IMG/VR virus record: IMGVR_UViG_3300049489_001303
Location: 32,001-96,000 of that record
Reading direction: 5' to 3' (one strand)
From: a virus
DNA: 64,000 bases
In this document: positions 21,219-48,126 of the stretch, in pieces
Position numbering within the stretch: position 1 is the stretch's first letter
How the letters are laid out: each line of letters begins with the position of its first letter
Notes under the pieces: model-generated
Database searches by the model: none
The model's input: the letters and a program-made list of their open reading frames with translations, nothing else
Told to the model about the DNA's origin: nothing
Position numbers and translations under genes: made by a program

Positions 21219-23330
21219 TCAGCCATCAACTATTATCCAACCCAGCCATTCAGCCAATTTATCAAGGTCAACTTCGGGTAGAGTTACCGCGCTGTCCGGG
21301 GTAGCTACCATCTCAGGCAGAATACTGGCGATTTTTTCTCCAGAGGCCAACTGTGAGAGTTTAACTGATGCCGTACCACCTCTAAGGCCTTGTAAGGTGC
21401 CCTCAATAGAAGGCCGCACAGCATTTTCAACACTACGCACAGCCTTCTGTACGCCTGTTCTACCCAGACCTTTATGCAGTAAAGCCGACCCACCGAGCAG
21501 GGAGATAATGGGATGGTTACTGGTGAATTCACCGGCAGTATCCATCATGCGCCGCGGCAGCGGCAGGCCCGGATGCCCTAGGGGAACACCATCATAGCTA
21601 CGACGTTTCTGGTCATATGCCAGAGCAGCCATGATGCCCAGCATCGTCATTGTAGGGATAGCCACGGGGTACTTACCCATAGTGTTGGCTACCGTATTTG
21701 CCACAGAGGACATCTTGGACAGCTCTGTGGTGATAGGCACCGGTACACCCTGGTCTGTCATGTAGTGCTTGCCCATTGTAGGACGCGCAGCATACCCTGC
21801 AGCAGCCAGGCCGGCGGCAAGCAGCGGGTGTTTGATAGGACCTACCGACATACCGCCCTTGGGCAGTGCACTACCGATCAGCTTGTAGGCGCCACCCAGT
21901 AACGCCGCTCCCCCCAACGTCTTAAGGAGGTTGGCACGAGCGATGTCATCATGAGACCTTATAGCAGCCCCACGGGTGGTAGCATAAACCTCTCCCGTAG
22001 CGGGATCTGTCAGTGTAAACTGTGTGGTCTTTCCGGGATCCTGTTTCCAATCTTCAGGAATGGCACGACGCTTGAGGTACTCATAAACACCCCCGCGTTT
22101 CTCAACGAAAGGCGTAAGGGTATCAGTCAAGTCTCCACGAACGTATTCCGGGCCGAAAGCCAGAGCGCCGGTCTTAGCTAACTGCTCCATGATCTGAGGA
22201 TGGTCCTCCAGCAGTTCAATAACTCCGGACTGGACGACTCCAGCGTTGTCGAGCATCCGCTGTGATATCTTCTGAATATGCCCCTGCTTGTAAGCGCTGA
22301 CCTTCAGGAACTCAGCAGCGCTTAACTGCATCCCCCCAACGGCCATCGCCGAAGAGACGACCTCAGGAAGGGAGTAAGAGGCGAGCTTCTGTACAGTCTC
22401 CTCGGGGAGATCCGGGGTGTTCGCCGCAATACCCTGGGCATAGGGGCGCATCTTGATAAGGTTCTGATACTCTTCGGTGGACATATTGTCCGGGATAGAG
22501 TCTACAGACACTCCACGAACGACCTTATCAATAACGGCCAGCTTCTTTGCCGCCAGTTTCTGCTGCTCCATCCCGTCGAGATACTCCCCCGCCGCGGCGC
22601 CGGAAATAACCTCGTAGGCCTGGTTGTTGGCAACCTTCTTGAGCATGAATGCTGTGGCGTCTGCTGGCCTGAACACCCAGGAGATATCAAAAAACTTGGG
22701 AGAGGGATTCAACGCAGCCACCTTCTTACCGTCGATGACTTCTTTCATCTGAAACTTGAGGTGGTTGCAGTATTGGGCGCGGGTGGGAGCCGTATTCCCA
22801 CAAATCGTGCAGCGATCGAACGGGACCCTGGTGCCCATACTCACAGGCGGAAACTCACCAGCTGCAATGCGCTCTGCGAGGTCAGGGGCTTTAGAATTAT
22901 CCAGATCCACCACGAGTTCTACGCGGTGCATTGTAGGATTCCAGAAGGCCCTGAGAACTTTACCCACAGCTTTTTGCGGGTCTTTATTTACATGGTGCCG
23001 GAAGTTGTGCGCCGATTCAAACGACTTGTAGTGCTGCACCAGCGTCTCTTTGTCGCTGATCCAAGGGGGATTCAGGTGCGACATATAGGGGCTCTCAGGA
23101 AACCCATCGCCATTGCGGTTCTCACCGTAAAACTCCCACGACCCCAACGCCAGAACGTAGACAATACTGTGGCCTGGGATGGGGGTGATAGTCTTGAAAT
23201 AGTCGTTGGCCACGCTGGCATGTTTGGTGAACTGCTCATAGCACGGCTTACCATTGGCCCAGAGAACTACGGGCTGGATGGAAGCTTCCCCGGTAGGGAA
23301 GTAGGGATCTATTTCGACTATCTTATGCAT
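21219..23330 (-). CDS. Prohead (capsid maturation) serine protease with C-terminal hydrophobic extension
   Basis: N.NGD.F, H.N (His), VSMG (Ser), C..C/C.H Zn site, FFDISWV..PAD: HK97/herpes-type head protease pattern. Confidence 0.8.
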   Translation of the reverse strand: MHKIVEIDPYFPTGEASIQPVVLWANGKPCYEQFTKHASVANDYFKTITPIPGHSIVYVLALGSWEFYGENRNGDGFPESPYMSHLNPPWISDKETLVQHYKSFESAHNFRHHVNKDPQKAVGKVLRAFWNPTMHRVELVVDLDNSKAPDLAERIAAGEFPPVSMGTRVPFDRCTICGNTAPTRAQYCNHLKFQMKEVIDGKKVAALNPSPKFFDISWVFRPADATAFMLKKVANNQAYEVISGAAAGEYLDGMEQQKLAAKKLAVIDKVVRGVSVDSIPDNMSTEEYQNLIKMRPYAQGIAANTPDLPEETVQKLASYSLPEVVSSAMAVGGMQLSAAEFLKVSAYKQGHIQKISQRMLDNAGVVQSGVIELLEDHPQIMEQLAKTGALAFGPEYVRGDLTDTLTPFVEKRGGVYEYLKRRAIPEDWKQDPGKTTQFTLTDPATGEVYATTRGAAIRSHDDIARANLLKTLGGAALLGGAYKLIGSALPKGGMSVGPIKHPLLAAGLAAAGYAARPTMGKHYMTDQGVPVPITTELSKMSSVANTVANTMGKYPVAIPTMTMLGIMAALAYDQKRRSYDGVPLGHPGLPLPRRMMDTAGEFTSNHPIISLLGGSALLHKGLGRTGVQKAVRSVENAVRPSIEGTLQGLRGGTASVKLSQLASGEKIASILPEMVATPDSAVTLPEVDLDKLAEWLGWIIVDG

Positions 23331-29724: not shown

Positions 29725-30309
29725 TTAATATCTCACCGGGCCCGGTTCCCCACCATGCTGTTCCGGGTAAATAGTGTTACCGGCACCAGTAAGATGCCCG
29801 ACACCTGTACCAATAGCGCCACCGATCTGGCCCCCGGCCATCCCACCACCGATAGCACCCAGAAGACCCAGCGGCCCGAAGGCAGCCAAGCTGAGAGCAC
29901 TGCCACCGAGGCTCTCTCCCAGGCGCTTGGCTTTATCACCCTCGGCATCCCCGGCAATGCTGCCCGCTTCATAGGCCGGAAGGCCGTAGAAGAGCGCCTT
30001 GTTAAGGAGCCCGGGTGCTTTGAGTCCTTCACGAATCAGTCCACCTTCGCTGAGGGCTTTGCCACCTTTCAGTTCGTCATAGAACTGGCGAGGTTTACCG
30101 ATCATAAAATTCTTAACGCTGCTGCCAACATCTTTGAGTTTTACGTTTCGACCTTTTTGTATCAGGCCGCTTATGGCATCGCCTATGGCGTTGAGGCCTT
30201 TACCCATGACTGCGCTACCGCCGGGAACACGCAAGGCCACCTTCTCGATACCGTAGCGGTCATATGCTGAATCTTGCCCCAGTTTGTAGAACATCTCAGT
30301 AACGGCCAT
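29725..30309 (-). CDS. Putative ejection protein with glycine zipper
   Basis: Start revised to 30309 (MAVTEMFYKLG..EKVA); C-terminal LGAIGGGMAGGQIGGAIGTGVG. Confidence 0.65.
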   Translation of the reverse strand: MAVTEMFYKLGQDSAYDRYGIEKVALRVPGGSAVMGKGLNAIGDAISGLIQKGRNVKLKDVGSSVKNFMIGKPRQFYDELKGGKALSEGGLIREGLKAPGLLNKALFYGLPAYEAGSIAGDAEGDKAKRLGESLGGSALSLAAFGPLGLLGAIGGGMAGGQIGGAIGTGVGHLTGAGNTIYPEQHGGEPGPVRY

Positions 30310-32098
30310 CTTCACCCTCTCCAAATTCAACACCGTAAGTATACGCCGGGACTGGATGTGTACCATGGATATTTGATTCTTCACCATATGCAGCGGCTTG
30401 CATAATGGATCTCTTGAGACCCTGGTGAGCCATTCGGGCAATCCAATCGGAATGTTTCTTGGGGGCGCTGGTGGCTGACATCATCACAAACTCAACCCCC
30501 GGAGCCCTCGGTGATACTATCACCTGATCTATACCTTTTTCGATCAGCTTGCGAGACACCTCGTGGGTTATATGCGTTCCAGCCGTGTAGCCTGGATATG
30601 CAATACCCAAGGTTTCTCCAATAGCTGCCTTGGTGGGCAACTGCTTGGTGTCCTCTCTGAGCACCTTCCTGAGAGCATTGTATGATACAGTGTCCCCCTT
30701 CAGAAAGTGGGGGGAGTTATCATCAGTGATCAACGCATGGCTCATTACACTCTTGGCCAGCAGCTCGAAGTGGCGGGGATCCATATTCATCCCCTGGCCC
30801 TTGTACAAATTATGCAGGGAGCTGACCATGTACCGTCTACCCTCATCCAGACCCTTCAATCGAGTGATGTCGGTGGGGCGAATGATACCTTCGCTGAGGC
30901 GGTCGCCCTTAGACACCTGAGCATCCTTCTTTACAAGGATGTCCAGCCCGGGTTCGATGTAGTGCCGTGTTTTTTCTACCGTAACAAAGTGGCCACCCTG
31001 CGGCGCCACCTCTACCTTCGTAACTTTGCCCTCAACTTCAGACAGGATAGCCCGGTTCTCAAAGTTCTCCGGCGTTTCGATAATCGCTCGGAAGCCTTTG
31101 ATCCCCTGAACCTGCTGTTTGTCAGACTTGGCCGTGTGACCGCCATGCTTGGCACTCAAAGCAAACTGTGTCAGTGGCTCCGCCATAGCCTGAGCCGAAC
31201 GGATACCCACATTGATACCTTTATGGTGTAAATTCCCCCGCTCGTCCAACCCCTGACAGTGCTTACAAACGCCGTCGGGCGCTTCACAGGTCATAGGAGA
31301 GCGCACCAGGATCCTGGCGCTCAGCTTGGCTATGGCCGGCTGATTGTTGGGGGTTATTAATGTATTATGTTTAAAGGAGTGAACTCCCCGGGCAAGGTAC
31401 CTGTCGATAACGTCCGGGGAAGAAGCATCCATCTCCAGGCCGTTGGTGGTTCCACAGTCATCCTCGGTGATAACCTGGTCGGACATATTGACAACCAGCT
31501 TCTTTGCCAGCTCGCCCGGCTCAGAAACAGAAGTCATACTGGCAATCTGGTCTTTCATGGATTGCCCGGTGGTCGCCCAATAATCAGCGGGTTTGAGGCC
31601 CTCCGAGTAAGTCTTCTCTACCAGCCATGGGATGGGATTGCCGTCAAAATCTCGTACGTAACCAACCCCACCGACGAGGTTGTTATAACCGACCATGTTT
31701 CCGCGGGCACCACTCTTGACCTGCAGGGTCAGCGACCCGGGATGCTTATCTGTGAGGTCCATCAGCGCCGTATGTGCCCCGATAGCGGCGTCCTTCCGCT
31801 TCTCATCTGTGTTGGCCGCCTTGAATTTTGCAATGTGCGGGGCCATCATCTTCTTACGCTTGGCATAGTCTGGAGTGATATCGTCCAGCCCTATGGTGAG
31901 ACCCTCAAGAGTAGCTATGCGATCACCCTCGTGCTTAATCTTTTCAATAGATTCAGCATAGGCTTCGGGATTCTGGTGAGCGTATGTCATCATGCTCTTC
32001 TTGAAAGCTGACTTTGTTACAGGCCCCCTGAGCTTGTGCTCTTCAGGCAGGTGCTGATTGATCAGATAGCGTCCGTAGGTTTCAGACTTTTCAGCCAT
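30296..32098 (-). CDS. rpoC: DNA-directed RNA polymerase, beta' C-terminal subunit
   Basis: SGARG, bridge helix, EDDCGT, VRSPMTC..C..C, G..SAQAMAEPLTQ..H trigger loop, RHFELL; likely start ATG 32098. Confidence 0.9.
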   Translation of the reverse strand: MAEKSETYGRYLINQHLPEEHKLRGPVTKSAFKKSMMTYAHQNPEAYAESIEKIKHEGDRIATLEGLTIGLDDITPDYAKRKKMMAPHIAKFKAANTDEKRKDAAIGAHTALMDLTDKHPGSLTLQVKSGARGNMVGYNNLVGGVGYVRDFDGNPIPWLVEKTYSEGLKPADYWATTGQSMKDQIASMTSVSEPGELAKKLVVNMSDQVITEDDCGTTNGLEMDASSPDVIDRYLARGVHSFKHNTLITPNNQPAIAKLSARILVRSPMTCEAPDGVCKHCQGLDERGNLHHKGINVGIRSAQAMAEPLTQFALSAKHGGHTAKSDKQQVQGIKGFRAIIETPENFENRAILSEVEGKVTKVEVAPQGGHFVTVEKTRHYIEPGLDILVKKDAQVSKGDRLSEGIIRPTDITRLKGLDEGRRYMVSSLHNLYKGQGMNMDPRHFELLAKSVMSHALITDDNSPHFLKGDTVSYNALRKVLREDTKQLPTKAAIGETLGIAYPGYTAGTHITHEVSRKLIEKGIDQVIVSPRAPGVEFVMMSATSAPKKHSDWIARMAHQGLKRSIMQAAAYGEESNIHGTHPVPAYTYGVEFGEGEDGRY

Positions 32099-33515
32099 TG
32101 CTGCGCCCTCGGAAGGTATCGTAGTGGAGACCCTGACCCATAGCACTTACCGCGGTAGACCAGCTGACCGGAGAATTCAGACGCTGCTCAGACGCTGTTT
32201 GACCTTCAGTGCTATTATCGCTGTCTCTACGCGGACCCGGCGCTACCATCTTCTGCATGGCACCTACCAGATCTTGCACAGCTTCGGTATCCCGGGAAGG
32301 TTCATTCTCAGCAGAGACTCCGGCGATGTCCAGACCCATTTTTTGAAACGCAGCTTCGTACCCAAGCTGATAAGCTGATTTTTCCATTGAGGTGCCTCTC
32401 TGCAATAACCACTTGTCCCCGTGAGTTCTGAATATAGTATAGCTCTCATTGGAGGATTCGCGCTTGAATTTTACAGTGTCATCCGTGACCTTCTCTACCA
32501 GGATAGGCTCTTTAACAACGATCTGTACAGTGCCTTTACCGTATCCCTTACCTATCTGCTGCGGCCCCGCGGCCCCGAAATTCATAGCATAGTGTGATGT
32601 ATGTGTCGGAGTCCTGACTGCCAGAAGTTTCTCCCCCGCGGCAGGCAACTTCGCTTTAGGGATAGCCCAGGAGTGCGCATAGGAGGTTCCCGGGTCTACC
32701 AGGCGAAGGTCCCAGTGTAGTCCAGCCTTGTCGGCGTGATGTTCCTGGATAACCAGCGTCCATGTCTGCCCTGTACCTTTGGCCGGAAGCGCGTACATCC
32801 TTCTGGACCGCGGTACCCCCGGAGCGAACTCTTTCTCTTTCAGGATCCTTGCTACGTCGGCGTGATGGGGCTCGAAGTTGCGGAGTTCCCGTTCAGTCAG
32901 TGGCACAGCTACCCGGCCAGTCTCGCTGTTGAGGGAATATTCAGCCCTCAGCGCCCCCATGTTGTGGAACGTGGAGGTGTCGAGCCGTATCTGGTTCGGC
33001 TTTGGGGGCTTCAACACCAGCGGCCCCTTGGCCAGCGGCTTCAAGGTGGCTTCCACAATAGCCCGGACTTTGTCTGTGGGCATCTTCCTGTGCAGATCCC
33101 CGCGCACATGAAACCCGCGCCCACCCGAGTACGTTATCCGGGTGTCTGAAATCTCAGGAACAGTCCCCAGCGCCTGGGCCACCTGCTGAGTCACGCGTTT
33201 CGTCTCATCAAAAGAAACGTCCTTGCCCGGATCTATATCCACCCAGGCTGTCCGTGTGTTCCTCCCTATTGATGGATGGAACTCAGAGTAACGCCGATCG
33301 GTGTACCAAGCCAAATCCTGGGGGTTACTGGTATCACCCTTGGCATCCAGAATCTTGATAGGCTTCCCATCGGCGGCGTTGCGGCGCATGATGAGATTAT
33401 TGTCCCCACGATCCATCACTGCCAGCAGGGGCCTGTTCTGAACCTGTGACAGAATGGCTTCACGTACATGTGGGTCTGAGTAGTACTCAGCGATATCGTG
33501 TTTGGACAACGCCAT
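32091..33515 (-). CDS. LigD-like primase-polymerase (AEP) fused to a LigD 3'-phosphoesterase domain, no ligase domain
   Basis: AEP motifs WVDIDP, YSGGRGFHV, RLD, R.EYSL; PE motifs IQEH, HWDLRL, SWAIPK, LAVRT..H...Y, YG.G.V. Confidence 0.85.
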   Translation of the reverse strand: MALSKHDIAEYYSDPHVREAILSQVQNRPLLAVMDRGDNNLIMRRNAADGKPIKILDAKGDTSNPQDLAWYTDRRYSEFHPSIGRNTRTAWVDIDPGKDVSFDETKRVTQQVAQALGTVPEISDTRITYSGGRGFHVRGDLHRKMPTDKVRAIVEATLKPLAKGPLVLKPPKPNQIRLDTSTFHNMGALRAEYSLNSETGRVAVPLTERELRNFEPHHADVARILKEKEFAPGVPRSRRMYALPAKGTGQTWTLVIQEHHADKAGLHWDLRLVDPGTSYAHSWAIPKAKLPAAGEKLLAVRTPTHTSHYAMNFGAAGPQQIGKGYGKGTVQIVVKEPILVEKVTDDTVKFKRESSNESYTIFRTHGDKWLLQRGTSMEKSAYQLGYEAAFQKMGLDIAGVSAENEPSRDTEAVQDLVGAMQKMVAPGPRRDSDNSTEGQTASEQRLNSPVSWSTAVSAMGQGLHYDTFRGRSNG

Positions 33516-36500
33516 CAGTCTTCACCGGTGATACGCACATGAGTTCCCATGTCTATCTTACCTTCACGGTAGGCCTTAGCAGCTTCCCCCTTGTTCTTGA
33601 AAGTCTTTACGGGGCCATGTTTATCCTCGTTAGAGGCATGAGCTATTCCCATGATAGCTTCGTGGCCGGGGAAGGCATATAAGTCGGACTTGTTCTTGTC
33701 CCCATAGAGCAGCTTGCCCATGGTGAGGCCTTTGACCTCTTCCACAGCTTTGGCGCCGACGGGGACGTGAATCATCATTGTATCACCGTCGTAATCAGAA
33801 TTGGTACCCGATTCAACGAAAGGACTGATACGTATGGTTTTCCCGGGTGCAATCTTCGGGTATGCTCCCACCAAGCTGTAGCGGTGGAGCGTAGGGGCAC
33901 GATTCATCAACACCGGCCGCTCAGCCATCTCCTTCAAAAGGATCTGCTTAGCGGCGTGATGATGGGACTTGACCATTTCTTTGGCTTCAAGCGCGGGATA
34001 GCCATTGGCTACAAGACCCTTCACTATGAAATTGGCATACATCTCCCAGAGCATCGATTCAGGCAGACCGATCTCGTTCATACTCAAGGTGTTGTCCGGG
34101 ACGATTGTACCGCGGCCGGCGAGGTCCTGTCTCCGCTTCATAATCTTGGAGTTGAAGAAGCCTTCCTTGGGAGTATTCTCACCTGAGATGTACGTCAGGA
34201 AGCCCTTGTGTTCTCGAGCTTTGGATTTGGATGATATGGGATCATCCGTGCCGTATACAGCCCCAACAGCTTGCTGCAGTGCTGGGCGGAGTTTCTTCTC
34301 CTCGGAGGGCAGGAGGCCAGACTTCTTGAGTTCTTTGAACTGCTTATTCGTGTAGATCAGATCTCTGTACAACGGGTTGATATCCCCGTACATGATCTCT
34401 TGATTACCGCGACCTGGAATAACGGGGCGCATGACCGGAGGCACAACAGGCACTACGCTTATCGTGTAGGCCTTATCCGGAGACAACTTCATCTTCTGCA
34501 AAGCGTGAATGTACTTCAGCTGCTTGACCTCATCGTCCAGAGAGGTGGCCGACTTGGTCTTCATACTGGCCCGGATCTCTTTTTCCTTCTTAACCAGGTC
34601 AAGCTTGCGAAGCTGGTCCTGAATGTGGCGGCCACCCTTTTCTTTGAGAACGTCATCCAGTTCGGTGCCGGTCATCCCGAGCAACCGACGGACGGGCTCC
34701 TTGAAAATAGGGTTCACCACTGGCTCCACCAGCTTGATATGCCCCCAATTGGTCCCTGAGAGTCCGCCCGTAACAGCGGGGTCGAACAGACCACCGGTCT
34801 CGGGGGCGAAGTTCTTGGCTTTAATCAGGGTAGGTTCTTTGATCTCCCCCATCGACATCTCCATGACATCGGCATCGGTGAGAGGTGATGCGCTGAGCAC
34901 GCTCTTATCCCGGGTGACTTTGACTCCAGCACCAGTCAGCATATGCATGAGCTTATCATAAGCGAAAGGCGCCTTAACCGGCGGCGTCGGGTAGCCCAAC
35001 TGAACCGCTCTCCAGTACTCATCGTTCTTCTGGCTTTTAAGTGTCGCAGCTTCCTGCAGAACGTTACGTGCATTGTGGGCTACCAGAGCATCAAACTCCA
35101 TCTTACCATAGGCCTTCGAGCTCTCGGAACCACCCTTGATGGGCTGCTGATTTACGTCGTAACCACCTTCAGTACCGCGGCCACTGAAATTGGACTCAGT
35201 GGTCTTCATGAGCTTAAGGATGTACTGCCTACCCACAAACACTTTGGGGATAGTCTTCCCCGAGCGCGGGTCAAACATATCCTCTTTGTCTTTGATATCG
35301 TGCTTTTTGAGAAGATCCTTGGCCCACTGCACATTGTCACGGCCCGTCAGGTTCTCCACTACGATGGGCTTGCCAGTCTTCTCGACGACCTTGCCCACTG
35401 CGTTCTCTATAATCTGGGAAGGGTTGGCGCGGCTGACAACGCCGGCGGACGTCAAGATGACATCCACGGTGTTACCCGCCTCATCCTTGAGCATCTGGTC
35501 ATCCGGAACTATCTCGGAAACAACCCCTTTACCACCATACCTGTTGGCTAATTTATCCCCGACTGATACAGGTTCCCTGGTTTTAATCGTAATGGCGACA
35601 CGCTTAGGGGTCTTCACCACGTCGATAACTTCGCCCTCGTGCTCATGATCCCAGAGCTGCATCTGCTCACGGTAAGGCTTCACCAGTGATTTATGGAGCC
35701 GCCCCAGCATCAGGTCGTCGGAAGTCAGGGTGGCTTTACGCAGACCGGCTACCAGCGGGTCGCCCGGCTTAACGATGGTTCCCGGTTTGATAAGACCATC
35801 GTCTGTAAGCTTGCTATACTGATCAGCCGTGTACTTGTGTCCGTAGTAGGACCGGTGATGTGCGGCGTGCAAAGACAGGTCGGCGTCCCGGGGAATCACG
35901 ATCTTGTACATGCGCTCAGAGGTCAGCTTCTTGGCGGCACCCTCACTGACAACGATAGCGTCATTGGAGTTGGCACCGTAGTAGGGCATGTAGGCTACAG
36001 ACAAATTCTTACCCAGAGCCATCCGCTGATCTTTGGTGAAGTTTGACTCTGTGAGCTGCGTCTTCGGGGTGACATCGTCACCCACCTGGACGCGGGGGGT
36101 CTGAGTTAAGTGGGTCTTGGACGCCAAGGGGAAGTGCGTCATGTAAGGCACCTTCACAACGTCATCGTCCTTCTTGGCTGTCTTTTCATGCGCTTTATGC
36201 GCCCCGGCTTTGTGCGGCTTGATGTGAATATGGCTGCCGTCAATGTGCACCACTTTACCGTGTATGGGGGAGCGAGCATTCGTGTGCCAGGCCAGCTCCT
36301 CTTCCATCGGTCGGCCATTGGGGCCCATAACCTGCACATACGGAGCCTCTCTGTCCACCAGCCCCAGAGCCTGGGTCTGCATCTTGGAGCCCATCACCGA
36401 TCGGTTCCCCTGCAGAGACTCGATGAAGGGTATCAGGTTAGTGGTCGGGCCGTAGGTGTATGACGTGTGCGGCATCTGATACTTAACCTTCGAGGCATGC

Positions 36501-37900
36501 ACATGGCGAATCTGGCCATCCTGCAGGGCATCAACCATGCCCTTCAGCTCCTGATTGGGGAACGCCACAATCTCATCCTGCATGGCGCCGGCACGGACAG
36601 CCCCCAGCTTACCCGTCTTCACGTCGATAACCGGGACGTAGATATTGTTGTCCTTGTCCTTGGAAACACCCAGAGCCGCACGGAGGTCAACACCAGCACG
36701 GAAGGTGTCTGGGGTTCGGAAAGGGTCCAGTGCGCCGATGTGGGTGGGGTGCTTCTGCCGGGCTTCCATGGGGATAGCCCGATCGGTACCGATGCCACCC
36801 TCTCCCATAGCAGTCACGCGCACCGCGGAGTCCCAGAGGTCCATGGGATTCGTCTGTGTTGGGACAGTCACCAGCTGTGAGCTGTTGATAAAGCGGAGGA
36901 TGCCCCCGGTGAAAGGCCCCGCCGGCAGAGCCTTGCGGAGCTCGGGAGCTGTTTCCATTTTGAGAATAGCTTTACGCCCGACATCACGAGCATCCAGCTT
37001 GATACGCTCTTTGAAAAAGTCATCCGGCCCGTAAATGCCCTTGAAGTCCAGGTTGTCGCGGTCATCGGGATCTGCCGAGTTACGGTAGATGTCGATCAGT
37101 TTCTTGGAAGAGTCGAGAAGAGCTTCCGGAGTAACCGACTTATGTTCCTTGCCCAGAGTTTTAGAGTTAACGTGCGGATCCATACCTTGCGTCGCATAAC
37201 GTGCAAAAATCTCCTTAGCCATAGCCTCGGTATCAGTAGACTCCCGGTGGTATTCCGGAACCATCTTCTTGTACAGAGCGGCGACAGCCTTGTCCTGTTT
37301 ATGTCCTGTTTCTTTCTCATTCTGGGCGGCCAATCGGTCTCCCCAGGCACGCGAAATGTCCTGTTGAGAAACCCCACCAGCGCGGAGGATCGGATACAAC
37401 GGAATCTTGGCCGAGGCATACTCGAGCTGAGGTGTACCCTTGACCGGATCCATCACGATATTGAAGTTGGAACCTGTGCGAGTGTTGAAGTTGGACTCCA
37501 GAACACCATTGGCCCGCTTGCGGGTATACACCCCGGCCTTGGGGCGCACCTGGTTGGAGATGGAATATTCGTTACCCCCCACGATGATGGTGTGGCGATC
37601 AGTAAACCACGGGATCCGGGCCAGAGTGAAGTTGGGCACCTTGTCCACAACCTTACCTTCAGCGTCCTTCATGATCAGCGTTCCGCGGACGTTCTCATAG
37701 AGGGTGTCCCCCTGGAGGATAGCTGCCTTCTGCTCCTCGGGGCTGTAGTCCTTCTCCTGATAGTGCAGGTCCTGAACCTCAAGGGACTTCGAGCGGGACT
37801 TGATAGGAAAGGACTCCTCCAACCCCTCAACAACCTTCTTACGAATCTGCTCCCGGCGTTTCTCCGGATGGTCAATTATCCTTGTCAGTTCTTCGGTCAT
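33515..37900 (-). CDS. DNA-directed RNA polymerase, beta subunit fused to the beta' N-terminal half
   Basis: beta motifs: GNEY, MGSKMQTQA, GDKLANRYGGKGVV, GKME. beta' motifs: GHIKL, NRAPTLHR, catalytic NSDYDGD. GGAGG SD. Confidence 0.93.
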   Translation of the reverse strand: MTEELTRIIDHPEKRREQIRKKVVEGLEESFPIKSRSKSLEVQDLHYQEKDYSPEEQKAAILQGDTLYENVRGTLIMKDAEGKVVDKVPNFTLARIPWFTDRHTIIVGGNEYSISNQVRPKAGVYTRKRANGVLESNFNTRTGSNFNIVMDPVKGTPQLEYASAKIPLYPILRAGGVSQQDISRAWGDRLAAQNEKETGHKQDKAVAALYKKMVPEYHRESTDTEAMAKEIFARYATQGMDPHVNSKTLGKEHKSVTPEALLDSSKKLIDIYRNSADPDDRDNLDFKGIYGPDDFFKERIKLDARDVGRKAILKMETAPELRKALPAGPFTGGILRFINSSQLVTVPTQTNPMDLWDSAVRVTAMGEGGIGTDRAIPMEARQKHPTHIGALDPFRTPDTFRAGVDLRAALGVSKDKDNNIYVPVIDVKTGKLGAVRAGAMQDEIVAFPNQELKGMVDALQDGQIRHVHASKVKYQMPHTSYTYGPTTNLIPFIESLQGNRSVMGSKMQTQALGLVDREAPYVQVMGPNGRPMEEELAWHTNARSPIHGKVVHIDGSHIHIKPHKAGAHKAHEKTAKKDDDVVKVPYMTHFPLASKTHLTQTPRVQVGDDVTPKTQLTESNFTKDQRMALGKNLSVAYMPYYGANSNDAIVVSEGAAKKLTSERMYKIVIPRDADLSLHAAHHRSYYGHKYTADQYSKLTDDGLIKPGTIVKPGDPLVAGLRKATLTSDDLMLGRLHKSLVKPYREQMQLWDHEHEGEVIDVVKTPKRVAITIKTREPVSVGDKLANRYGGKGVVSEIVPDDQMLKDEAGNTVDVILTSAGVVSRANPSQIIENAVGKVVEKTGKPIVVENLTGRDNVQWAKDLLKKHDIKDKEDMFDPRSGKTIPKVFVGRQYILKLMKTTESNFSGRGTEGGYDVNQQPIKGGSESSKAYGKMEFDALVAHNARNVLQEAATLKSQKNDEYWRAVQLGYPTPPVKAPFAYDKLMHMLTGAGVKVTRDKSVLSASPLTDADVMEMSMGEIKEPTLIKAKNFAPETGGLFDPAVTGGLSGTNWGHIKLVEPVVNPIFKEPVRRLLGMTGTELDDVLKEKGGRHIQDQLRKLDLVKKEKEIRASMKTKSATSLDDEVKQLKYIHALQKMKLSPDKAYTISVVPVVPPVMRPVIPGRGNQEIMYGDINPLYRDLIYTNKQFKELKKSGLLPSEEKKLRPALQQAVGAVYGTDDPISSKSKAREHKGFLTYISGENTPKEGFFNSKIMKRRQDLAGRGTIVPDNTLSMNEIGLPESMLWEMYANFIVKGLVANGYPALEAKEMVKSHHHAAKQILLKEMAERPVLMNRAPTLHRYSLVGAYPKIAPGKTIRISPFVESGTNSDYDGDTMMIHVPVGAKAVEEVKGLTMGKLLYGDKNKSDLYAFPGHEAIMGIAHASNEDKHGPVKTFKNKGEAAKAYREGKIDMGTHVRITGED

Positions 37901-37921
37901 GCATTCCTCCGCGGCACACTA

Positions 37922-37950
37922 AGTATAGAGCCTGGGGCCGTAGATGTAAA
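37922..37950 (-). promoter_or_regulatory. sigma70-like promoter of the RNAP operon
   Basis: TTTACA-N17-TATACT. Confidence 0.65.
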
Positions 37951-38036
37951 ACTAAAACAAGAGGCGGGATTTGGTATAAGATAGTAGACAGCACCCACAG
38001 GATAATCTTGTGGCGGCAACCCTACGGAGGTGTACC

Positions 38037-38201
38037 ATGTGTACACTGATGCTTCTCGCCGCTTTGGCGGCACCCGTTCCCGCACAGTCCCCTGCGCTCG
38101 AAACCCCCTCCGCCCAGGTGGAAACAGCGAAGATGAAACTTCGCAGCAACCCCATGTTCTGGCCCGCCTGGATGTTTCGGCCCTACACCCTTGAGGTGTG
38201 A
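38037..38201 (+). CDS. Small protein with signal-peptide-like N-terminus (54 aa)
   Basis: GGAGG SD; MCTLMLLAALAAPVPAQ.... Confidence 0.5.
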   Translation: MCTLMLLAALAAPVPAQSPALETPSAQVETAKMKLRSNPMFWPAWMFRPYTLEV

Positions 38202-38329
38202 AGCCGCTCGCCTCCTGGATGTAAAACAGCCGGTCACCTGTGTGATAGGCTGTTAACACCCAGGAGGTACTTACATGAAATTTGAGCCTCTGACACCTGC
38301 TATCCCGCCCATCAAACGGTGATAGCTTT

Positions 38330-38360
38330 GAAAGCCTGGAGCAATCCGGGCTTTCTTTTT
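38330..38360 (+). terminator. Intrinsic terminator
   Basis: GAAAGCCTGGA-GCAA-TCCGGGCTTTC-TTTTT. Confidence 0.8.
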
Positions 38361-38362
38361 GC

Positions 38363-38914
38363 TCAGTCTTTTTTGAAAGCCTGTTCGACGTTGGGAGGGT
38401 AGATCTGATTTCTTTTGCGTTCTTCCATCAGTCTCTTTATGCGGCGAGCCTCGTCGGGATCCACTTCCATCCATTCCACATGGACAAAGCGAGCCCCCTC
38501 GGTGGGGAAGGGTTCTTTGGAAACGATGGTGCAGTCCCCCTTGAGGTACTTGTCCATGACAGCCTTATATTCTTTGGCCTGGGTGTGGGGGCATTCGTAG
38601 TCGCCATCTTTGACAGGCAGGATGGCATGACCTGAAGCCAACGCATTCTGGCAGCGGGCGCAGGCTTCCCAGTCACGCCATATACAGAACACTTTGCTGT
38701 ACGCCTGATAGGAGCTCTCAACAGAAGCCTTCTCGGGGGGAGTATCTTTCCGAATATGGGGGTTAACCATAGTATCCAGATCGGTTTCCACCGAGAACAT
38801 GGGCCCCAGTTCCAGGGTGTCACCCCCCGGCCCACCCTGGGAAGGCGCGGGTTGGCTGCGGGCGTTATTGGCAATCGCCAGATAGTTGAAGCCTGAGGAT
38901 GTGGGTTGTGGCAT
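38363..38914 (-). CDS. Hypothetical protein (C..C/C.H)
   Basis: 183 aa, directly downstream of the portal gene. Confidence 0.65.
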   Translation of the reverse strand: MPQPTSSGFNYLAIANNARSQPAPSQGGPGGDTLELGPMFSVETDLDTMVNPHIRKDTPPEKASVESSYQAYSKVFCIWRDWEACARCQNALASGHAILPVKDGDYECPHTQAKEYKAVMDKYLKGDCTIVSKEPFPTEGARFVHVEWMEVDPDEARRIKRLMEERKRNQIYPPNVEQAFKKD

Positions 38915-38922
38915 GGTTTATC

Positions 38923-40683
38923 TCACCCCTGTTGCGGCTGACCCGGCCCCTTAGCCTGCTGCTTAAGAGCTTGAGTCTGCTGCTGCTGTGCTGTTTCCAA
39001 CCGTTGAACAACCACAGCATACATGACAAGGTCCTCCGTTTGCAACTGTTTAAGGCGCGATTTGCGTTCACCCTGTTCAAGACCGAGCAACTGTTGAACA
39101 ACCTGGTCGGCCTGAGAGATGACCTGCTGCTGGTTGTAACCCGAGGGACTCTGCTGCGCTTCGGCGTCAACGCGGATCTGCTCAACCATACTGTTCTGGA
39201 TGTCCCTGACAGCACGCTGAGTCTCAATTTCAGAGCGGGATCTATCCAGGGTTTCCTGCTGAATTTTATCACGCTCGTTGTCCAGATCCAGCGTCAGGAG
39301 CTCAGCCATGGTCTGGTCAGAGATCACCTTGACACCGCTCTGATAGCCGCCCTGCCACAGATTGGCCAGAATCTGCTTGGTGGAGAGGTCGTCCGTCATG
39401 CGGAACTTCGCCATACCCACTTCAAGCTTCTCCCACCCCAGAAACGTAGCGCATTTGTCGTCCACCCACTGCAGGAGGTCCAGCAGGTCATTCACATGGG
39501 TTTCGAGTTGGTTCTCAATGAGGCGTAGGGTAGCTTCCATTCCAGAGCCCGTCAGCCCACCATAGATGAATTCTTGCGGGATACCCAAAGCCGAAATGAT
39601 AGCCTTCTCCGCTTCTTGAATTTCACCCAGGGTAAGCAGTGCGCGGCCTTGACCACCAATCTGCACAACGCCAACAGGCACCGGAGCAAACATCATATGC
39701 AGCGGGTCTTTGCGCCACGCAGCCATGTTGGAAACCATGTTGTCTTTCCACTTGGAAAGATTCATCTGGGTTACCGGGTCGCCCACGCCGGAGGCCTGCG
39801 CCGGGTGTATCACGCGGAAAGGCACCAGGTGGTCCAGGGCGATCGCGGTGTTTGCCTTACGCAGAATCGCCGTGTAGTGGAACAGCGACATGACCGAAAG
39901 CAGCGGGGGAAGGCCCCACTGGGGATTGATACCGGCTGGGCCGCCCATCTTCATATGGAAGACGACACCCTTGGAAAACTTGAACTTTTTGTTGGTCTTG
40001 ACGGCTTCCAGGAAACCAATGGGGAGTGTGTCAATCAGGAACTTGTGTCCACTGTTGATGCGCGTGATTATGTCTCTCGGGATGGTGTAGTAGTAGACGG
40101 ACTCCCCCGTGATAGGGTTGTATTCAATATCCATCTGCTTCGGATCCCACCGAATGAAATTGACGTGCTTGGGAGAGGTCAGCTTCTTGTCAATGATGTT
40201 GTCTTTACCTACCCGGCTCTTCTTATTGCAGCTCGGGCAGTCAAAGATGAACTTCAGTTCCTGAATGTTGAACGTGTACGTCAGCGTTTCGATATTGGTC
40301 AGGGTCTGACAGTGGGGGCACCTCAAAAACCGGATGAACGGTTGGTACATGGTTAAGAAGGCGTTCCCGTACACATACTTGTCGAGAGTCGCTTTGATCA
40401 ACAATTCCCGGGCACGCAGTGTCTTTTCCAGAAGGTCTTTATGCTGGCGACGAAGCGACACGTTGCTTGTGTCGTAGGTCACTTCTGTGATAGGATACTC
40501 ACCAAACTTACGGAGGGCTGAGTAGATTTGAGGGCTATTGTAAAAGAGGTACTCGCACCACTTGAAGAGATCCTTCAGCTTTTTTGGTGTGAACGACTGC
40601 GTGAAATCCTGATAGGGGCTGGGGTGGGTGGCAATATTCTGATTAGTCCCCAGCAAACTGTATGTCTCATTTATAGCCATCAA
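38923..40683 (-). CDS. Portal protein
   Basis: DKYVYGNAF, WGLPPL, ALGIPQEFIYGG, helical C-terminus; CPHC/CPSC zinc insert. Confidence 0.75.
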   Translation of the reverse strand: MMAINETYSLLGTNQNIATHPSPYQDFTQSFTPKKLKDLFKWCEYLFYNSPQIYSALRKFGEYPITEVTYDTSNVSLRRQHKDLLEKTLRARELLIKATLDKYVYGNAFLTMYQPFIRFLRCPHCQTLTNIETLTYTFNIQELKFIFDCPSCNKKSRVGKDNIIDKKLTSPKHVNFIRWDPKQMDIEYNPITGESVYYYTIPRDIITRINSGHKFLIDTLPIGFLEAVKTNKKFKFSKGVVFHMKMGGPAGINPQWGLPPLLSVMSLFHYTAILRKANTAIALDHLVPFRVIHPAQASGVGDPVTQMNLSKWKDNMVSNMAAWRKDPLHMMFAPVPVGVVQIGGQGRALLTLGEIQEAEKAIISALGIPQEFIYGGLTGSGMEATLRLIENQLETHVNDLLDLLQWVDDKCATFLGWEKLEVGMAKFRMTDDLSTKQILANLWQGGYQSGVKVISDQTMAELLTLDLDNERDKIQQETLDRSRSEIETQRAVRDIQNSMVEQIRVDAEAQQSPSGYNQQQVISQADQVVQQLLGLEQGERKSRLKQLQTEDLVMYAVVVQRLETAQQQQTQALKQQAKGPGQPQQG

Positions 40684-40764: not shown

Positions 40765-42792
40765 ATGCTATTTGACTTTACCAGAGTGAACCACACTCCA
40801 GTGCTGTTCGTCAAGACAGATAATCCGGAGTTTGGGCGTATCCTGGGTGCTACGCAGAGCAGCACCATCAAAGGTTGGCTCTACCCGGCATATCTCCCCT
40901 TTCTCCCCAAGGTGCTCGCCGACATCGGGATCCTGGACAAACAGGCGCAGTATACCCCCGCCGCGGAGGCCTACCTGAAAGAGGTCCGAAGCTACGAGCA
41001 GTGGCGGGATGTAGTTGCAAACACACATTTCCCTACACGTAGCCGTGACCATCAGCTGGATGGCACCGCCGAGCTGCTGACGTACCACCGCTGGATGCTG
41101 CAGTGGGGCATGGGGGTCGGCAAAACCAAGATCGCCATAGACACCATCAATATCCTCAGAACGCCGACGCTGGTTCTGTGTCCCCGTGTGGCGGTGGACA
41201 ATTGGATGCTGGAGATCGACAATCATGGGGGTGGTCAGCTGAGGGCCATGACCCTCAAAGGTGCCAGCAAAGAAGCCAAGATGAAAGAGCTGCTGGAGAT
41301 GCCCCTGCATGACGTGGTGATCACCACCTATGACACGGCGAGGCTCTACGGCGTCCCATCGATACCTCCGGCGGCGGTCACTCTGCTGAAGAACGCCCAT
41401 CGAGCACTCCACCCTGATTTGAGGACAGCATTGATGTCCTTGAACGACGCCCAAGCGCAGGAGCGCCTGATCACAGAGTGGCTGGCCGGGCGCAACAACG
41501 CCGAAGTCATCGCTGAGATCCGCCACCTCAGAGAAGGGCGTAGTCACCAGTGGCTGATGGACTGGGACTACCAGACGCTCATCTGTGACGAGTCGCACCG
41601 TATCAAACGCATCCAGAGTAGCCGGACTGCCGCAGTGCTGCAGATGTCGGCCAAGGCATCCCGGAGGATCCTGCTCTCAGGAACCCCTATCCAGGGCAAT
41701 CCTCTGGATGCATTTCCCCAGCTCAAGTTCCTGGCCCCCTATATAGTCAAGGAAGACTATAGGAAGTTCAAACAGAAGTACACCGTGGCATCCCCCTACA
41801 ACGAGAATGCTGTGGTGGGATACAAGAACCTGCACATCTTGAACAGGCTTATCAGCAGTATCAGCAGTAAGCGAGAACTGGAAGAGTGTCTCAGCCTCCC
41901 CGAGCAGGTCTTGACCAAGGTGAACTACAGCTTATCCCCCGCCCAGAAGCGTGCCTACAACCAGGCAGTGGAAGCCTGGATTGTGGATCGAGCCGATCGG
42001 AGTGCTCAGGATATTGTCAATGCCGCAAGCCGGATAAGCAAGCTACTACAGATCTGCAGTGGTTTCGTCTACACCCAGACTGACACGGGGTGCTGCGACA
42101 CTTGCCCACATTTGACTACATGCATCGAAGGAAAGATAACCCCCGGAACACCTCGTTGTTTCAGAAAGGAAGAGATTGGCGAAATCCCACGTGAGACTCA
42201 ATGGTTTGACCCTAACCCCAAAATGGAAGCCCTTAAGGATCTACTGGAAGACATCATTCCTACAAACAAGGTCATTATCTGGGCCGTCTTCACCGCTGAG
42301 TTGGATCTGGTGGAAAAACTCCTACAGAGGGAGAAGATAGGGTACGTTCGAGTAGACGGCTCCAACACAGGTAAGGTCGCTAATATGGCCGCGAAATTTA
42401 ACAGTGAACCTGAGTGTATGGTATATCTGGCCCAGATCAGCACTGGCATCAGTATCACGCTTAACGCTGCTAAATACATGATCTACTACTCTCGCAACTG
42501 GAGCCCTGACGACAGGGAGCAGTCTATGGCCCGTAACCATAGACTGGGGCAGACACAGACAACAGGTGTATATGACCTGTGTGCTTTTGGAACAGTAGAG
42601 GCCCAACAACTTACCGCTTTAAACTGTAAACAGAATATCACCCAGTTATTGACAGATAAGGTTGACTGTCTGGTTTGTTCTCGCTATAGTGCCTGTGTAA
42701 ATACAGGAATAGAACCGTGGGATGACGGATGCATCTACAAGAAAAGCGTAAGCAAAGTCACGGCCAGAGCTGAATCTTTAGAGGAGGATTGA
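40765..42792 (+). CDS. SNF2-family (SF2) helicase/ATPase
   Basis: MGVGKT, DESH, LSGTP, GISITL, Q..AR.HRLGQ. Confidence 0.9.
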   Translation: MLFDFTRVNHTPVLFVKTDNPEFGRILGATQSSTIKGWLYPAYLPFLPKVLADIGILDKQAQYTPAAEAYLKEVRSYEQWRDVVANTHFPTRSRDHQLDGTAELLTYHRWMLQWGMGVGKTKIAIDTINILRTPTLVLCPRVAVDNWMLEIDNHGGGQLRAMTLKGASKEAKMKELLEMPLHDVVITTYDTARLYGVPSIPPAAVTLLKNAHRALHPDLRTALMSLNDAQAQERLITEWLAGRNNAEVIAEIRHLREGRSHQWLMDWDYQTLICDESHRIKRIQSSRTAAVLQMSAKASRRILLSGTPIQGNPLDAFPQLKFLAPYIVKEDYRKFKQKYTVASPYNENAVVGYKNLHILNRLISSISSKRELEECLSLPEQVLTKVNYSLSPAQKRAYNQAVEAWIVDRADRSAQDIVNAASRISKLLQICSGFVYTQTDTGCCDTCPHLTTCIEGKITPGTPRCFRKEEIGEIPRETQWFDPNPKMEALKDLLEDIIPTNKVIIWAVFTAELDLVEKLLQREKIGYVRVDGSNTGKVANMAAKFNSEPECMVYLAQISTGISITLNAAKYMIYYSRNWSPDDREQSMARNHRLGQTQTTGVYDLCAFGTVEAQQLTALNCKQNITQLLTDKVDCLVCSRYSACVNTGIEPWDDGCIYKKSVSKVTARAESLEED

Positions 42793-47023: not shown

Positions 47024-48043
47024 TTAATACCCCAGGCTATCTCCGTGGCGAGATCGGCGCTTCATCTCCCGCTTCAGCATCTTCACGGCTTTCTCTTTGA
47101 TCTGCCGGACTCTTTCTGGAGTGATCTGGGTGATAGCAGCCAATTGGGGCAGGGTCTTATTGGCGTTTTTGCGCTCTTCTTCGGGGATATTGAAGTACCC
47201 CAGCACAATGTAGAGATCTCGCTTTGATTTGCACACCCGGCGCAGAGTCTGCCGCACCATGAAAGACGCATCATCGCTGATAGCAGTATCTTCGGCAGTC
47301 CCCACAGTGCTGATGTGTGTGTCATCTACCTGCACGGCCGGATGCATTATCGCCGCATCATCGTTGAGAGGGGCTTCAAAGTTGTGACCTCCGGGCGACG
47401 TGCAGGGCAGGGAAGCGTCACAGGCCTCTGGAGTCTCACTGCGTAAGCCGCAAATAGTGCACACGTACCGCCCCTCTTTATATGACTTCCTTAAGTCCCT
47501 TTGCCGGTGGGTGGGTATATGCACCAGGTGTGAGGCATGGATCTCATCCAGCATCTCTTTACGGATCCACCACTCCGCATAGGTCAGGAAGCGAGTGCTG
47601 CGGTTCATGCTGAACTTATCCAGAGCTATCACTAACCCCACGTTGCCCGCCGACACCAGCTTCTGAAAATGCTCAGAATCCTGTGTTATTTTTTTTGCCC
47701 GGCGGATAACAAAGCGGAGGTTGGCCTGGATGATCTTTTCCCGGGCTAACAGGTCTCTGGAGGAGCCACATTTGGGGCAATATACCGGGGGTGCCGAAAT
47801 TTCAAATTTGTCCCCACATCTGGTACAAGCAGTTGCCTTATCCCGACTTTCTTCGGGAGTGGGCTCCCCGCACGTGGGGCAGTTACTTACAAAGGCTTTT
47901 GGCTCAAACAGGTGCGTGCAGTTGGGGCACGTGTAGTAGCGTCGCAAAAGCTCCCGCTCTTCAGCCGCGGTGAGGACCTGATGTTTACCGACTTCATTGT
48001 AGTACTGTGTATAAACCCGATCCCGTGTACTATCGTGTAGCAT
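47024..48043 (-). CDS. sigma70-family RNA polymerase sigma factor with zinc-ribbon insertions
   Basis: Region 1.2 (Y..EV....LT.EEE), region 2 (NLRFV, GNVGL..A.DKF, RFLTYAEWWIR), region 4 (TPERVRQI); GGAGG SD before ATG 48043. Confidence 0.88.
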   Translation of the reverse strand: MLHDSTRDRVYTQYYNEVGKHQVLTAAEERELLRRYYTCPNCTHLFEPKAFVSNCPTCGEPTPEESRDKATACTRCGDKFEISAPPVYCPKCGSSRDLLAREKIIQANLRFVIRRAKKITQDSEHFQKLVSAGNVGLVIALDKFSMNRSTRFLTYAEWWIRKEMLDEIHASHLVHIPTHRQRDLRKSYKEGRYVCTICGLRSETPEACDASLPCTSPGGHNFEAPLNDDAAIMHPAVQVDDTHISTVGTAEDTAISDDASFMVRQTLRRVCKSKRDLYIVLGYFNIPEEERKNANKTLPQLAAITQITPERVRQIKEKAVKMLKREMKRRSRHGDSLGY

Positions 48044-48091
48044 GCAGACCTCCGTGTAGCCGTTTATCCTCCAAATATGATTGAACATCGC

Positions 48092-48126
48092 ACAATTAAT
48101 TAGACATTGCAAGTGTGCTTCGCTAT
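48092..48126 (+). promoter_or_regulatory. sigma70-like promoter (approximate bounds)
   Basis: TAGACA-N17-TATCAT upstream of 48178. Confidence 0.45.

Follow-up and report, generated by a model that had tools for sequence, protein, structure and literature searches.

Is a phage gene in which the beta subunit of RNA polymerase (RNAP) runs straight on into beta' a peculiarity of one genome, or is it one half of a working enzyme, and what else would such an enzyme need? The question is raised by the IMG/VR virus record IMGVR_UViG_3300049489_001303 (170,144 bp; CheckV completeness 95%), of which bases 32001-96000, a stretch of 64,000 nucleotides (nt) referred to hereafter as the window, were analysed. 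The window encodes a fusion of beta with the N-terminal part of beta' (beta-beta'N, P0001) and, in a second gene, the C-terminal remainder of beta' (beta'C, P0003). We suggest, with a probability of about 0.72, that these two genes provide the phage with its only RNAP core, a two-chain enzyme that would be independent of alpha, work with the phage's own sigma factors and be packaged in the virion, and whose beta' would have been split by secondary fission. The locus is confirmed as a real, conserved, functional-looking variant of the phage multisubunit RNAPs and as a member of an Arash-like family, named here after Salmonella phage Arash.

The reading frame of the fusion is uninterrupted over 1461 amino acids (aa), and this one chain carries Rpb2_3 and Rpb2_6 (E 4e-44) as well as Rpb1_1 and Rpb1_2 (E 2e-23) in Pfam searches. 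Phmmer comparison with the Protein Data Bank aligns residues 10-1013 to bacterial beta and residues 1083-1457 to E. coli beta' 175-550. When 19 phage rows and 35 bacterial RpoB+RpoC pairs are aligned (54 sequences), E. coli beta comes to its end, residue 1342, at position ~996 of the fusion, beta' starts directly after it, and the beta' portion ends at about E. coli position 554. Since beta' follows the end of beta immediately, minus its first ~15 residues, which are lost at the junction, the two parts are fused without a linker. All three approaches bear out an earlier note on this DNA, which had read the beta C-terminus as passing directly into beta', and the presence of Rpb2_6 and Rpb1_2 in the same protein agrees with its statement that both catalytic barrels lie in one chain. 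The beta barrel motif GDK..R.GGKG occupies residues 781-793, with GDKLANRYGGKG at 781-792, and a flap-tip-like helix is present in the beta part. The catalytic loop of beta', given in the note as NSDYDGD, is found as such at residues 1367-1373; its serine is a local variant, the family consensus being NADYDGD. Because beta is joined on this chain by the beta' clamp, the clamp helices and the Mg-binding barrel, chain 1 carries the entire floor of the active-site cleft. Taken together, these comparisons support a bacterial-type enzyme with both catalytic barrels on one polypeptide. Only one genomic location matched the fusion protein, and a second RNAP copy was not found in the 170-kb record.

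Few core losses emerged when segments of at least 8 columns were sought that 85% or more of the bacteria have and 85% or more of the phage proteins lack. They are E. coli beta' 68-99, the largest, together with beta' 153-175 and a small number of segments 8-13 residues long. The first of these is the four-Cys zinc-binding domain, which had been reported as missing from the fusion: it appears as a clean 32-column gap after residue ~1049, in every family member as well as in the full-length fusions described below. The sigma-binding clamp helices had been thought to be retained, and they are: in the alignment, residues ~1174-1216 are the counterpart of E. coli beta' 264-309. Residues 940-1461 were modelled with AlphaFold from a 61-sequence alignment (mean predicted local distance difference test, pLDDT, 83.7), and the clamp helices come out as a helical hairpin predicted with confidence. 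The top Foldseek matches of this model are bacterial beta' chains (E ~1e-30), the cyanobacterial gamma subunit being matched too, so that structure prediction, proposed at the outset as a check, returns a bacterial beta' fold for this part of the protein. A run on residues 900-1461 that used no alignment reached a pLDDT of only 38, was unusable and was replaced by the model described here.

The rest of beta' is encoded by a separate gene whose start codon corresponds to about E. coli beta' 569. Its product carries Rpb1_5 in Pfam searches, matches E. coli beta' over 721-938 and 1203-1337 in phmmer comparison with the same structures, and contains the bridge helix and the C-terminal clamp. The second beta' zinc site is kept (DDCGT, MTCE, GVCKHC). 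The trigger loop had been transcribed correctly as EPLTQFALSAKH but assigned to 33515-37900; it lies outside that interval, in the separate beta'C protein, where it aligns to the trigger-loop helix of E. coli and carries no lineage insertion. Together the two chains amount to 2061 aa (1461 + 600), and no universal catalytic element is missing from them. When the proteins are compared with solved cyanobacterial enzymes, RpoC2 residue 19 pairs with P0003 residue 47, which puts the phage break ~12 residues ahead of the RpoC2 start, near the cyanobacterial site without being identical to it, as had been proposed. In some relatives beta'C is fused to extra domains, namely a C-terminal GNAT acetyltransferase or an N-terminal NUDIX domain (P0133, P0208), and one relative, L053, has a beta'C open reading frame (ORF) of 1111 aa (L053:13056-16390).

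This arrangement is no one-off oddity: it characterises a large phage family, some members of which are in culture. A scan of IMG/VR with a single-protein query returned only an unrelated giant-virus contig; with an alignment as query, at least 190 contigs were found to encode relatives, and locus-level counts given here rest on the best 80 of these 190, all of which span fusion residues 1-1457. In every locus with enough downstream DNA a separate beta'C gene of ~600 aa follows on the same strand, 0.5-5.7 kb downstream, and the end of the fusion ORF is at one and the same position. More than 120 protein clusters with beta and beta' Pfam domains (50-79% identity), many lengthened by inteins or other inserts, belong to the same group, whose internal identity falls to 31-35%. 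Tblastn against deposited phages matched the fusion over its full length in Salmonella phage Arash (34.7%) and in Vibrio phages D69, D148 and D181 (33%), each with a portal gene just upstream and a separate beta'C gene downstream. These isolates share with the window phage the split site and the zinc-domain deletion, and Arash shares with it two sigma genes, gp10 and gp196 (OQ632216), and the lack of alpha. Arash belongs to a distant sub-lineage, with the catalytic loop AADYDGD in place of NSDYDGD. In the published annotation of Arash (PMC10585845) its genes are named 'beta' and 'beta-prime', and fusion, split and missing domains go unmentioned.

The content of the gap between the two RNAP genes varies within the family: it holds about nine genes in Arash and two small genes in D69, whereas in the window phage it is filled by P0002, a protein with LigD-type primase-polymerase and 3'-phosphoesterase domains and no ligase domain. 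Such a LigD-like gene occurs in the gap only in relatives of at least ~57% identity, and other sub-lineages carry unrelated small genes there, on either strand. In the window the three genes are tightly coupled, the stop codon of P0001 overlapping the start of P0002 (TGATG) and the stop of P0002 overlapping the start of the beta'C gene (ATGGCTGA), with Shine-Dalgarno-like sequences ahead of both of these starts. These overlaps, together with the recurrence of the same boundaries in 80 independent contigs, in three complete genomes with terminal repeats and in isolates, and with the 100% coverage of the Arash fusion protein, gp206, by virion peptides (PMC10585845), leave, even for a record that stems from a metagenome, a negligible probability that the fusion or the split is an artefact of mis-assembly, a frameshift or a pseudogene.

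Insertions of other kinds are common in the family. Inteins with LAGLIDADG endonucleases are frequent, one of them lying directly after the catalytic loop (P0004, residues ~1417-1865), and in Vibrio phages D181 and D148, whose fusion gene is interrupted, the matching region bears the annotation of a homing endonuclease. In one sub-clade an inorganic pyrophosphatase domain (Pfam InPase, E 8e-28 to 3e-51) is inserted in the beta part of the fusion (P0089, residues 593-707; two copies in P0107), and an RNAP of this kind would have a built-in enzyme for its own by-product.

How did beta' come to be joined to beta at one end and divided at the other? An exhaustive HMMER search with beta'C as query returned 5121 hits. 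Among the best 150 representatives, 61 consist of beta'C alone, 64 of beta'C with additions (inteins, GNAT, NUDIX), and 22 contain the whole of beta and beta' in one chain, which measures 1993-2090 aa, or more in those with inteins; one of the 22 is encoded on a phage-like contig beside an Acb5 gene. These single-chain proteins (e.g. P0167, P0194 and P0270) have the beta/beta' junction, zinc-domain deletion and overall length in common with the window enzyme, but are continuous across the split site, reading VRVAG-KNTSAGRAL where the window has VRITGED-stop and MAEKSETYGRYL; their catalytic loop is mostly NADFDGD and their identity to the window beta'C is ~31-32%. In beta'C trees rooted on 16 bacteria, split forms and full fusions make up one phage clade, with a Shimodaira-Hasegawa-like approximate likelihood-ratio test (SH-aLRT) value of 100. 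The split forms are a single clade within it (support 88 under LG+G4, SH-aLRT 98 under the C20 mixture model), around which the full fusions form a basal grade. Starting from separate bacterial genes, fusion followed by fission takes two steps under parsimony and the alternative order three. As the split clade is nested in the full-fusion grade and parsimony points the same way, the split is most simply read as a secondary event, in which an ancestral single-chain gene was broken once at a surface loop that afterwards served as a cargo slot. On this account the ancestor would have been a beta-beta' chain of ~2000 aa, cut once in the surface loop after the beta' barrel, and the resulting gap would have become a slot for variable cargo, here the LigD-like PrimPol/phosphoesterase. 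With full-fusion and split forms in one clade, the family offers a clean natural example of fission in the gene of an essential enzyme.

Whether the core would be complete without host subunits depends in the first place on alpha. Pfam searches of the whole 170-kb record gave no match to alpha (PF01000, PF01193) or omega (PF01192), with positive controls in 14/14 genomes, in agreement with the earlier statement that neither gene is visible, and PF01000 was unmatched in five complete relatives as well. A search of the genome with the T7-type RNAP profile PF00940 had no match either but, its controls being silent, is uninformative. We propose that the covalent link between beta and beta' takes over the assembly role of the alpha dimer, so that the core would form from two chains alone. 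Alternatively, the phage may borrow the alpha dimer, and perhaps omega, of its host, the working core being a phage-host hybrid. Alpha-contact surfaces could persist, given that nearly the whole universal bacterial core is kept, with only a few segments and the zinc domain missing; further to that, no assembly factor has been identified, and the 183-aa neighbour of the fusion gene belongs to no known family. We consider the hybrid unlikely all the same. The covalent linkage can obviously stand in for an assembly platform; conserved contacts to the alpha of one host are not to be expected of a protein with 25-31% identity to bacterial beta' and with isolates in hosts of different genera (Salmonella, Vibrio); RNAPs of the phiKZ and AR9 type function without alpha (PMC7598289); and an enzyme that is packaged must be complete in the capsid, where the excerpted Arash text names no host alpha (PMC10585845).

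The record holds two sigma-70-family genes, one of the Arash gp196 type within the window and one of the gp10 type outside it, the latter 40% identical to Arash gp10 (E 7e-31), and a sigma gene is present in 5/5 complete relatives. The window sigma has regions 1.2, 2 and 4 (region 2 match E 6e-13). Regions 1.2 and 2 are separated by two CxxC..CxxC zinc ribbons, and a third Cys cluster follows region 2, curious features given the loss of the zinc domain from beta'. Both sigma docking sites of the core, the beta' clamp helices and the beta flap tip, are kept, and from this and from the co-occurrence of the genes it is probable that the core pairs with the phage's own sigmas.

We further suggest that core and gp10-type sigma are carried in the capsid and injected together with the DNA, that they then start early transcription independently of the host, and that the gp196-type sigma later redirects the same core. 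This proposal is drawn from Arash virions and from the head-module position of the genes in all relatives. In the virion mass spectrometry reported in PMC10585845, the fusion gp206 of purified Arash particles yields the most spectra of any protein (3516, more than the major capsid protein), beta'C (gp216) 1210 and the sigma gp10 467, and the Arash authors suggest a role of the virion RNAP in early transcription. In the window the RNAP genes form a co-directional minus-strand block that runs from a portal homologue to the beta'C gene, and as the portal homologue lies upstream of them, they belong to the head module. By analogy with Arash, packaging in the window phage is therefore plausible. 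A different division of labour would leave the early genes, those for the phage RNAP among them, to the host RNAP, which a phage sigma might redirect, and would confine a phage core that stays out of the virion to middle or late transcription. The Arash authors themselves allow that abundant enzymes may contaminate particles (PMC10585845), redirection of host RNAP by phage-encoded sigmas is known from many large phages (PMC7824862), and a TATACT box resembling the sigma-70 -10 element forms the end of the candidate promoter 5' of the fusion gene. We nevertheless hold this alternative to be doubtful, in view of the spectral counts of the fusion, of beta'C and of one sigma in Arash, of the location of the RNAP genes between portal and head protease in all relatives, and of the single core per genome, with which a host-independent early phase would need the core in the particle.

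Several points weigh against a self-sufficient, packaged two-chain enzyme as we propose it. For the window phage, activity, alpha-free assembly and packaging are predictions. The phage sigmas could bind the host core instead, or additionally; a small gene could be missing from a record that is 95% complete; and a structural analogue of alpha with no sequence similarity would escape Pfam searches. The carry-over of abundant enzymes into virion preparations for which the Arash authors allow (PMC10585845) bears on packaging. As for the fission, support is moderate, the basal forks among full fusions having SH-aLRT values of 80-90 in a quick search with the root passing through a long branch. The description 'minimal two-subunit enzyme' in the earlier note is thus apt for the core, which comprises two chains; it has to be amended in that two sigma genes accompany the core, independence from host alpha is probable rather than observed, and the split is most likely secondary, not primitive.

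From where was such an enzyme acquired? In a sample of 599 genomes, the best bacterial matches to the beta'N part have 25-31% identity and are spread over more than 15 phyla with no preference. Trees of concatenated beta and beta' were built from 19 phage and 35 bacterial rows (1926 columns, LG+G4, alignment by FFT-NS-2) and from 11 phage and 25 bacterial rows (C20 mixture model), in both cases without an archaeal outgroup, cyanobacteria or Thermus/Deinococcus. The phage clade is monophyletic (100) and falls outside all 16 sampled bacterial phyla, which are themselves monophyletic outside it except for Bacillota (a Bacilli row groups with Mycoplasmatota). The branch joining it measures 2.0-3.9 substitutions per site, and its attachment shifts from near Campylobacterota (LG+G4) to near a Fibrobacterota/Bacteroidota group (C20). 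In amino-acid composition the phage rows differ from the other sequences aligned. The known hosts are Gammaproteobacteria, and a tree constrained to unite the phages with this class is worse by 38.8 log-likelihood units and is rejected by the approximately unbiased (AU) test (p-AU 0.0026). The enzyme therefore does not nest in the bacterial clade of its hosts; by the earlier note, such nesting would have refuted its reading. Ancient origin and fast evolution are not told apart by these trees, for which 'outside the sampled phyla on a long branch' is the limit. What can be retained of the term 'deep-branching' is thus the position outside the sampled phyla; the depth itself comes down to a long branch whose attachment changes with the model and which fast evolution may explain.

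We lean slightly towards the view that the lineage was captured from a bacterium after the bacterial radiation, its long branch being the product of fast viral evolution and domain loss. The sigma-dependent design, the second beta' zinc site and the domain order are all bacterial, the attachment point moves between models as fast long branches do, and the composition is deviant. This is despite the fact that no sampled phylum is closer than any other at 25-31% identity, that the phyla stay monophyletic outside the phage clade, that a clade with Gammaproteobacteria is rejected and that identity within the family itself falls to 31-35%. The opposite and most far-reaching possibility, a self-contained enzyme of two chains (or one, in the full fusions) that works without alpha, omega and the zinc domain, is packaged and injected with its sigma, switches programme by exchanging phage sigmas, and whose lineage predates the radiation of bacterial phyla, appears improbable to us. 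If true, it would make the family a window on an early bacterial transcription machine and not a degraded copy of a modern one.

Among cellular organisms, rpoB and rpoC are fused in Helicobacteraceae and Wolbachia (PMC7483510, after Zakharova 1999 and Lane & Darst 2010). As in the phage, the C-terminus of beta is joined there to the N-terminus of beta' in one frame. Unlike the phage fusion, however, these are cellular and far longer proteins with an unsplit, full-length beta', the zinc-binding domain, alpha2 and omega, and with the phage clade placed outside every sampled phylum, no specific relationship links them to it. In the RpoC1/RpoC2 pair of cyanobacteria and plastids, beta' is divided just after the catalytic barrel, ~12 residues from the phage site, but beta has a gene of its own, neither the zinc domain nor alpha nor omega is missing, and the very large insertion of cyanobacterial RpoC2 has no counterpart in phage beta'C.

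RNAPs of the phiKZ/AR9 type are likewise two-barrel enzymes free of alpha and omega, with a form that occurs in virions (PMC7598289). Their beta' is reported to be divided at the cyanobacterial site itself (PMC7598289), and with the phiKZ-type, cyanobacterial and present splits all located there, the loop after the barrel emerges as a recurrent break point. In these phages, however, beta is split too, into two or three chains, which brings the enzyme to four to five chains; each genome has two paralogous enzymes, virion and non-virion, and no sigma-70 is recognisable (PMC7598289), whereas in the window phage beta is intact, there is one copy per genome and sigma-70 region 2 is present, in line with the original contrast to the multi-piece phiKZ enzymes. 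The phiKZ-type sequences also stand much further from bacterial ones, PHROG matches having E values of only 1e-14 to 1e-25 for phiKZ-type profiles as against 1e-47 to 1e-56 for bacterial-like ones.

The mReC RNAPs (Weinheimer & Aylward 2020, PMC7481178) are bacterial-like, compact, encoded by tailed phages and reported on a deep long branch. Their beta (~1000-1400 aa) and beta' (~900-1300 aa) are separate, unsplit genes, and no beta-beta'N fusion is described for them (PMC7481178). Their supplementary tables contain beta and beta' as separate proteins only, and the contigs checked matched none of the present loci. Rhizobium phage RHph_TM30 (Kleczkowskaviridae, MN988521, L177 6746-10129), with an unsplit and unfused beta' of 1127 aa, represents a third arrangement in tailed phages. 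In reviews of phage RNAPs, jumbo phages that encode RNAP are described as lacking sigma and those that encode sigma as lacking RNAP, and a beta-beta'N fusion with a separate beta'C is not described in them (PMC7598289, PMC7824862, PMC13282480). The family is abundant in metagenomes yet missing from these reviews.

The holoenzyme would be a natural minimal one, ~2060 aa against ~3500 aa for the E. coli core, and useful for structural work and for the roles of alpha and the zinc domain. To our knowledge, the characterised sigma-dependent RNAPs all need an alpha dimer and carry the beta' zinc domain, near the RNA exit and upstream DNA. The present family unites the sigma-using bacterial design with loss of alpha, omega and this domain and with covalently joined catalytic subunits. 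As a cultured representative exists in Salmonella phage Arash, whose host is a laboratory Salmonella strain, these questions are directly testable at the bench. The features of the locus are collected in Table 1.

Table 1. Features of the RNAP locus and of the record around it (window positions unless prefixed G000:C1)
Feature	Position	Strand	Basis or remark
Fusion gene P0001, beta + beta'N, 1461 aa	33515..37900	-	ORF, Pfam, phmmer, alignment
Beta part of fusion, residues 1 to ~996	34913..37900	-	Pfam, alignment
Beta barrel motif	35522..35560	-
Beta'N part of fusion, residues ~997-1461 (E. coli beta' ~15-554)	33518..34912	-	alignment, model
Site of zinc-domain deletion	~34754	-
Clamp helices	34253..34381	-	alignment, model
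Catalytic loop NSDYDGD	33782..33802	-
Cargo gene P0002, 474 aa, LigD-like	32091..33515	-	Pfam
Beta'C gene, 600 aa from ATG 32098 (P0003 from residue 17)	30296..32098	-	Pfam, alignment
Trigger loop	31145..31180	-	alignment
Untranslated leader 5' of fusion gene, 462 nt	37901..38362	-	candidate promoter region
Leader element TCTTATACCAA	37972..37982	-	conserved in relatives
Leader element CTATACTT	37921..37928	-	conserved in relatives
Cys-rich 183-aa gene	38363..38914	-	conserved among relatives
Portal homologue, 31% identity to Arash gp204	38923..40683	-	comparison with Arash
Head-maturation-protease-like gene, downstream in same strand block	21219..23330	-
Sigma-70-family gene, Arash gp196 orthologue	47024..48112	-	regions 1.2, 2, 4
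Second sigma gene, gp10-like, outside window	G000:C1:111061-111486	-
Other TCTTATACCA sites	G000:C1 18423, 37089, 154949, 164280, 164348

The leader between the Cys-rich gene and the fusion gene opens with a terminator-like hairpin after the preceding gene and has GGAGG ahead of the fusion ATG. Two short elements in it are conserved in relatives (Table 1), and in five related phages the RNAP gene is preceded by TCTTATACCA(A) with CTATACTT ~45 nt downstream of it. Allowing at most one mismatch, TCTTATACCA recurs at about six intergenic sites in the record, 37-150 nt upstream of genes and facing them, where ~0.5 would be expected by chance. We regard the two elements as a candidate phage promoter. 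The motif emerged only from the alignment of the relatives' upstream regions; exact k-mer enrichment in intergenic DNA returned nothing. The whole 462-nt leader folds with -193.6 kcal/mol (z = -5.2 against shuffled controls), Rfam gave chance-level matches only, and most of the leader is missing from four relatives, whose own leaders are only ~200-270 nt long. An ORF at 37897-38259 that overlaps the start codon of the fusion was treated as non-coding, there being no match to it in 82 related loci.

The Cys-rich gene on the other side of the leader is present in 50/80 related loci, always between portal and RNAP. Its product has no Pfam or PHROG match and may be a small zinc protein tied to the polymerase or to the head. 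Beyond the portal gene, and divergent from it, a SNF2-family helicase is encoded at 40765-42792 (+). Further plus-strand genes of the window specify an amidase with a peptidoglycan-binding domain (44130-45314), a large Toprim-like protein (50052-53564) and a family A DNA polymerase with a 3'-5' exonuclease (53410-56571).

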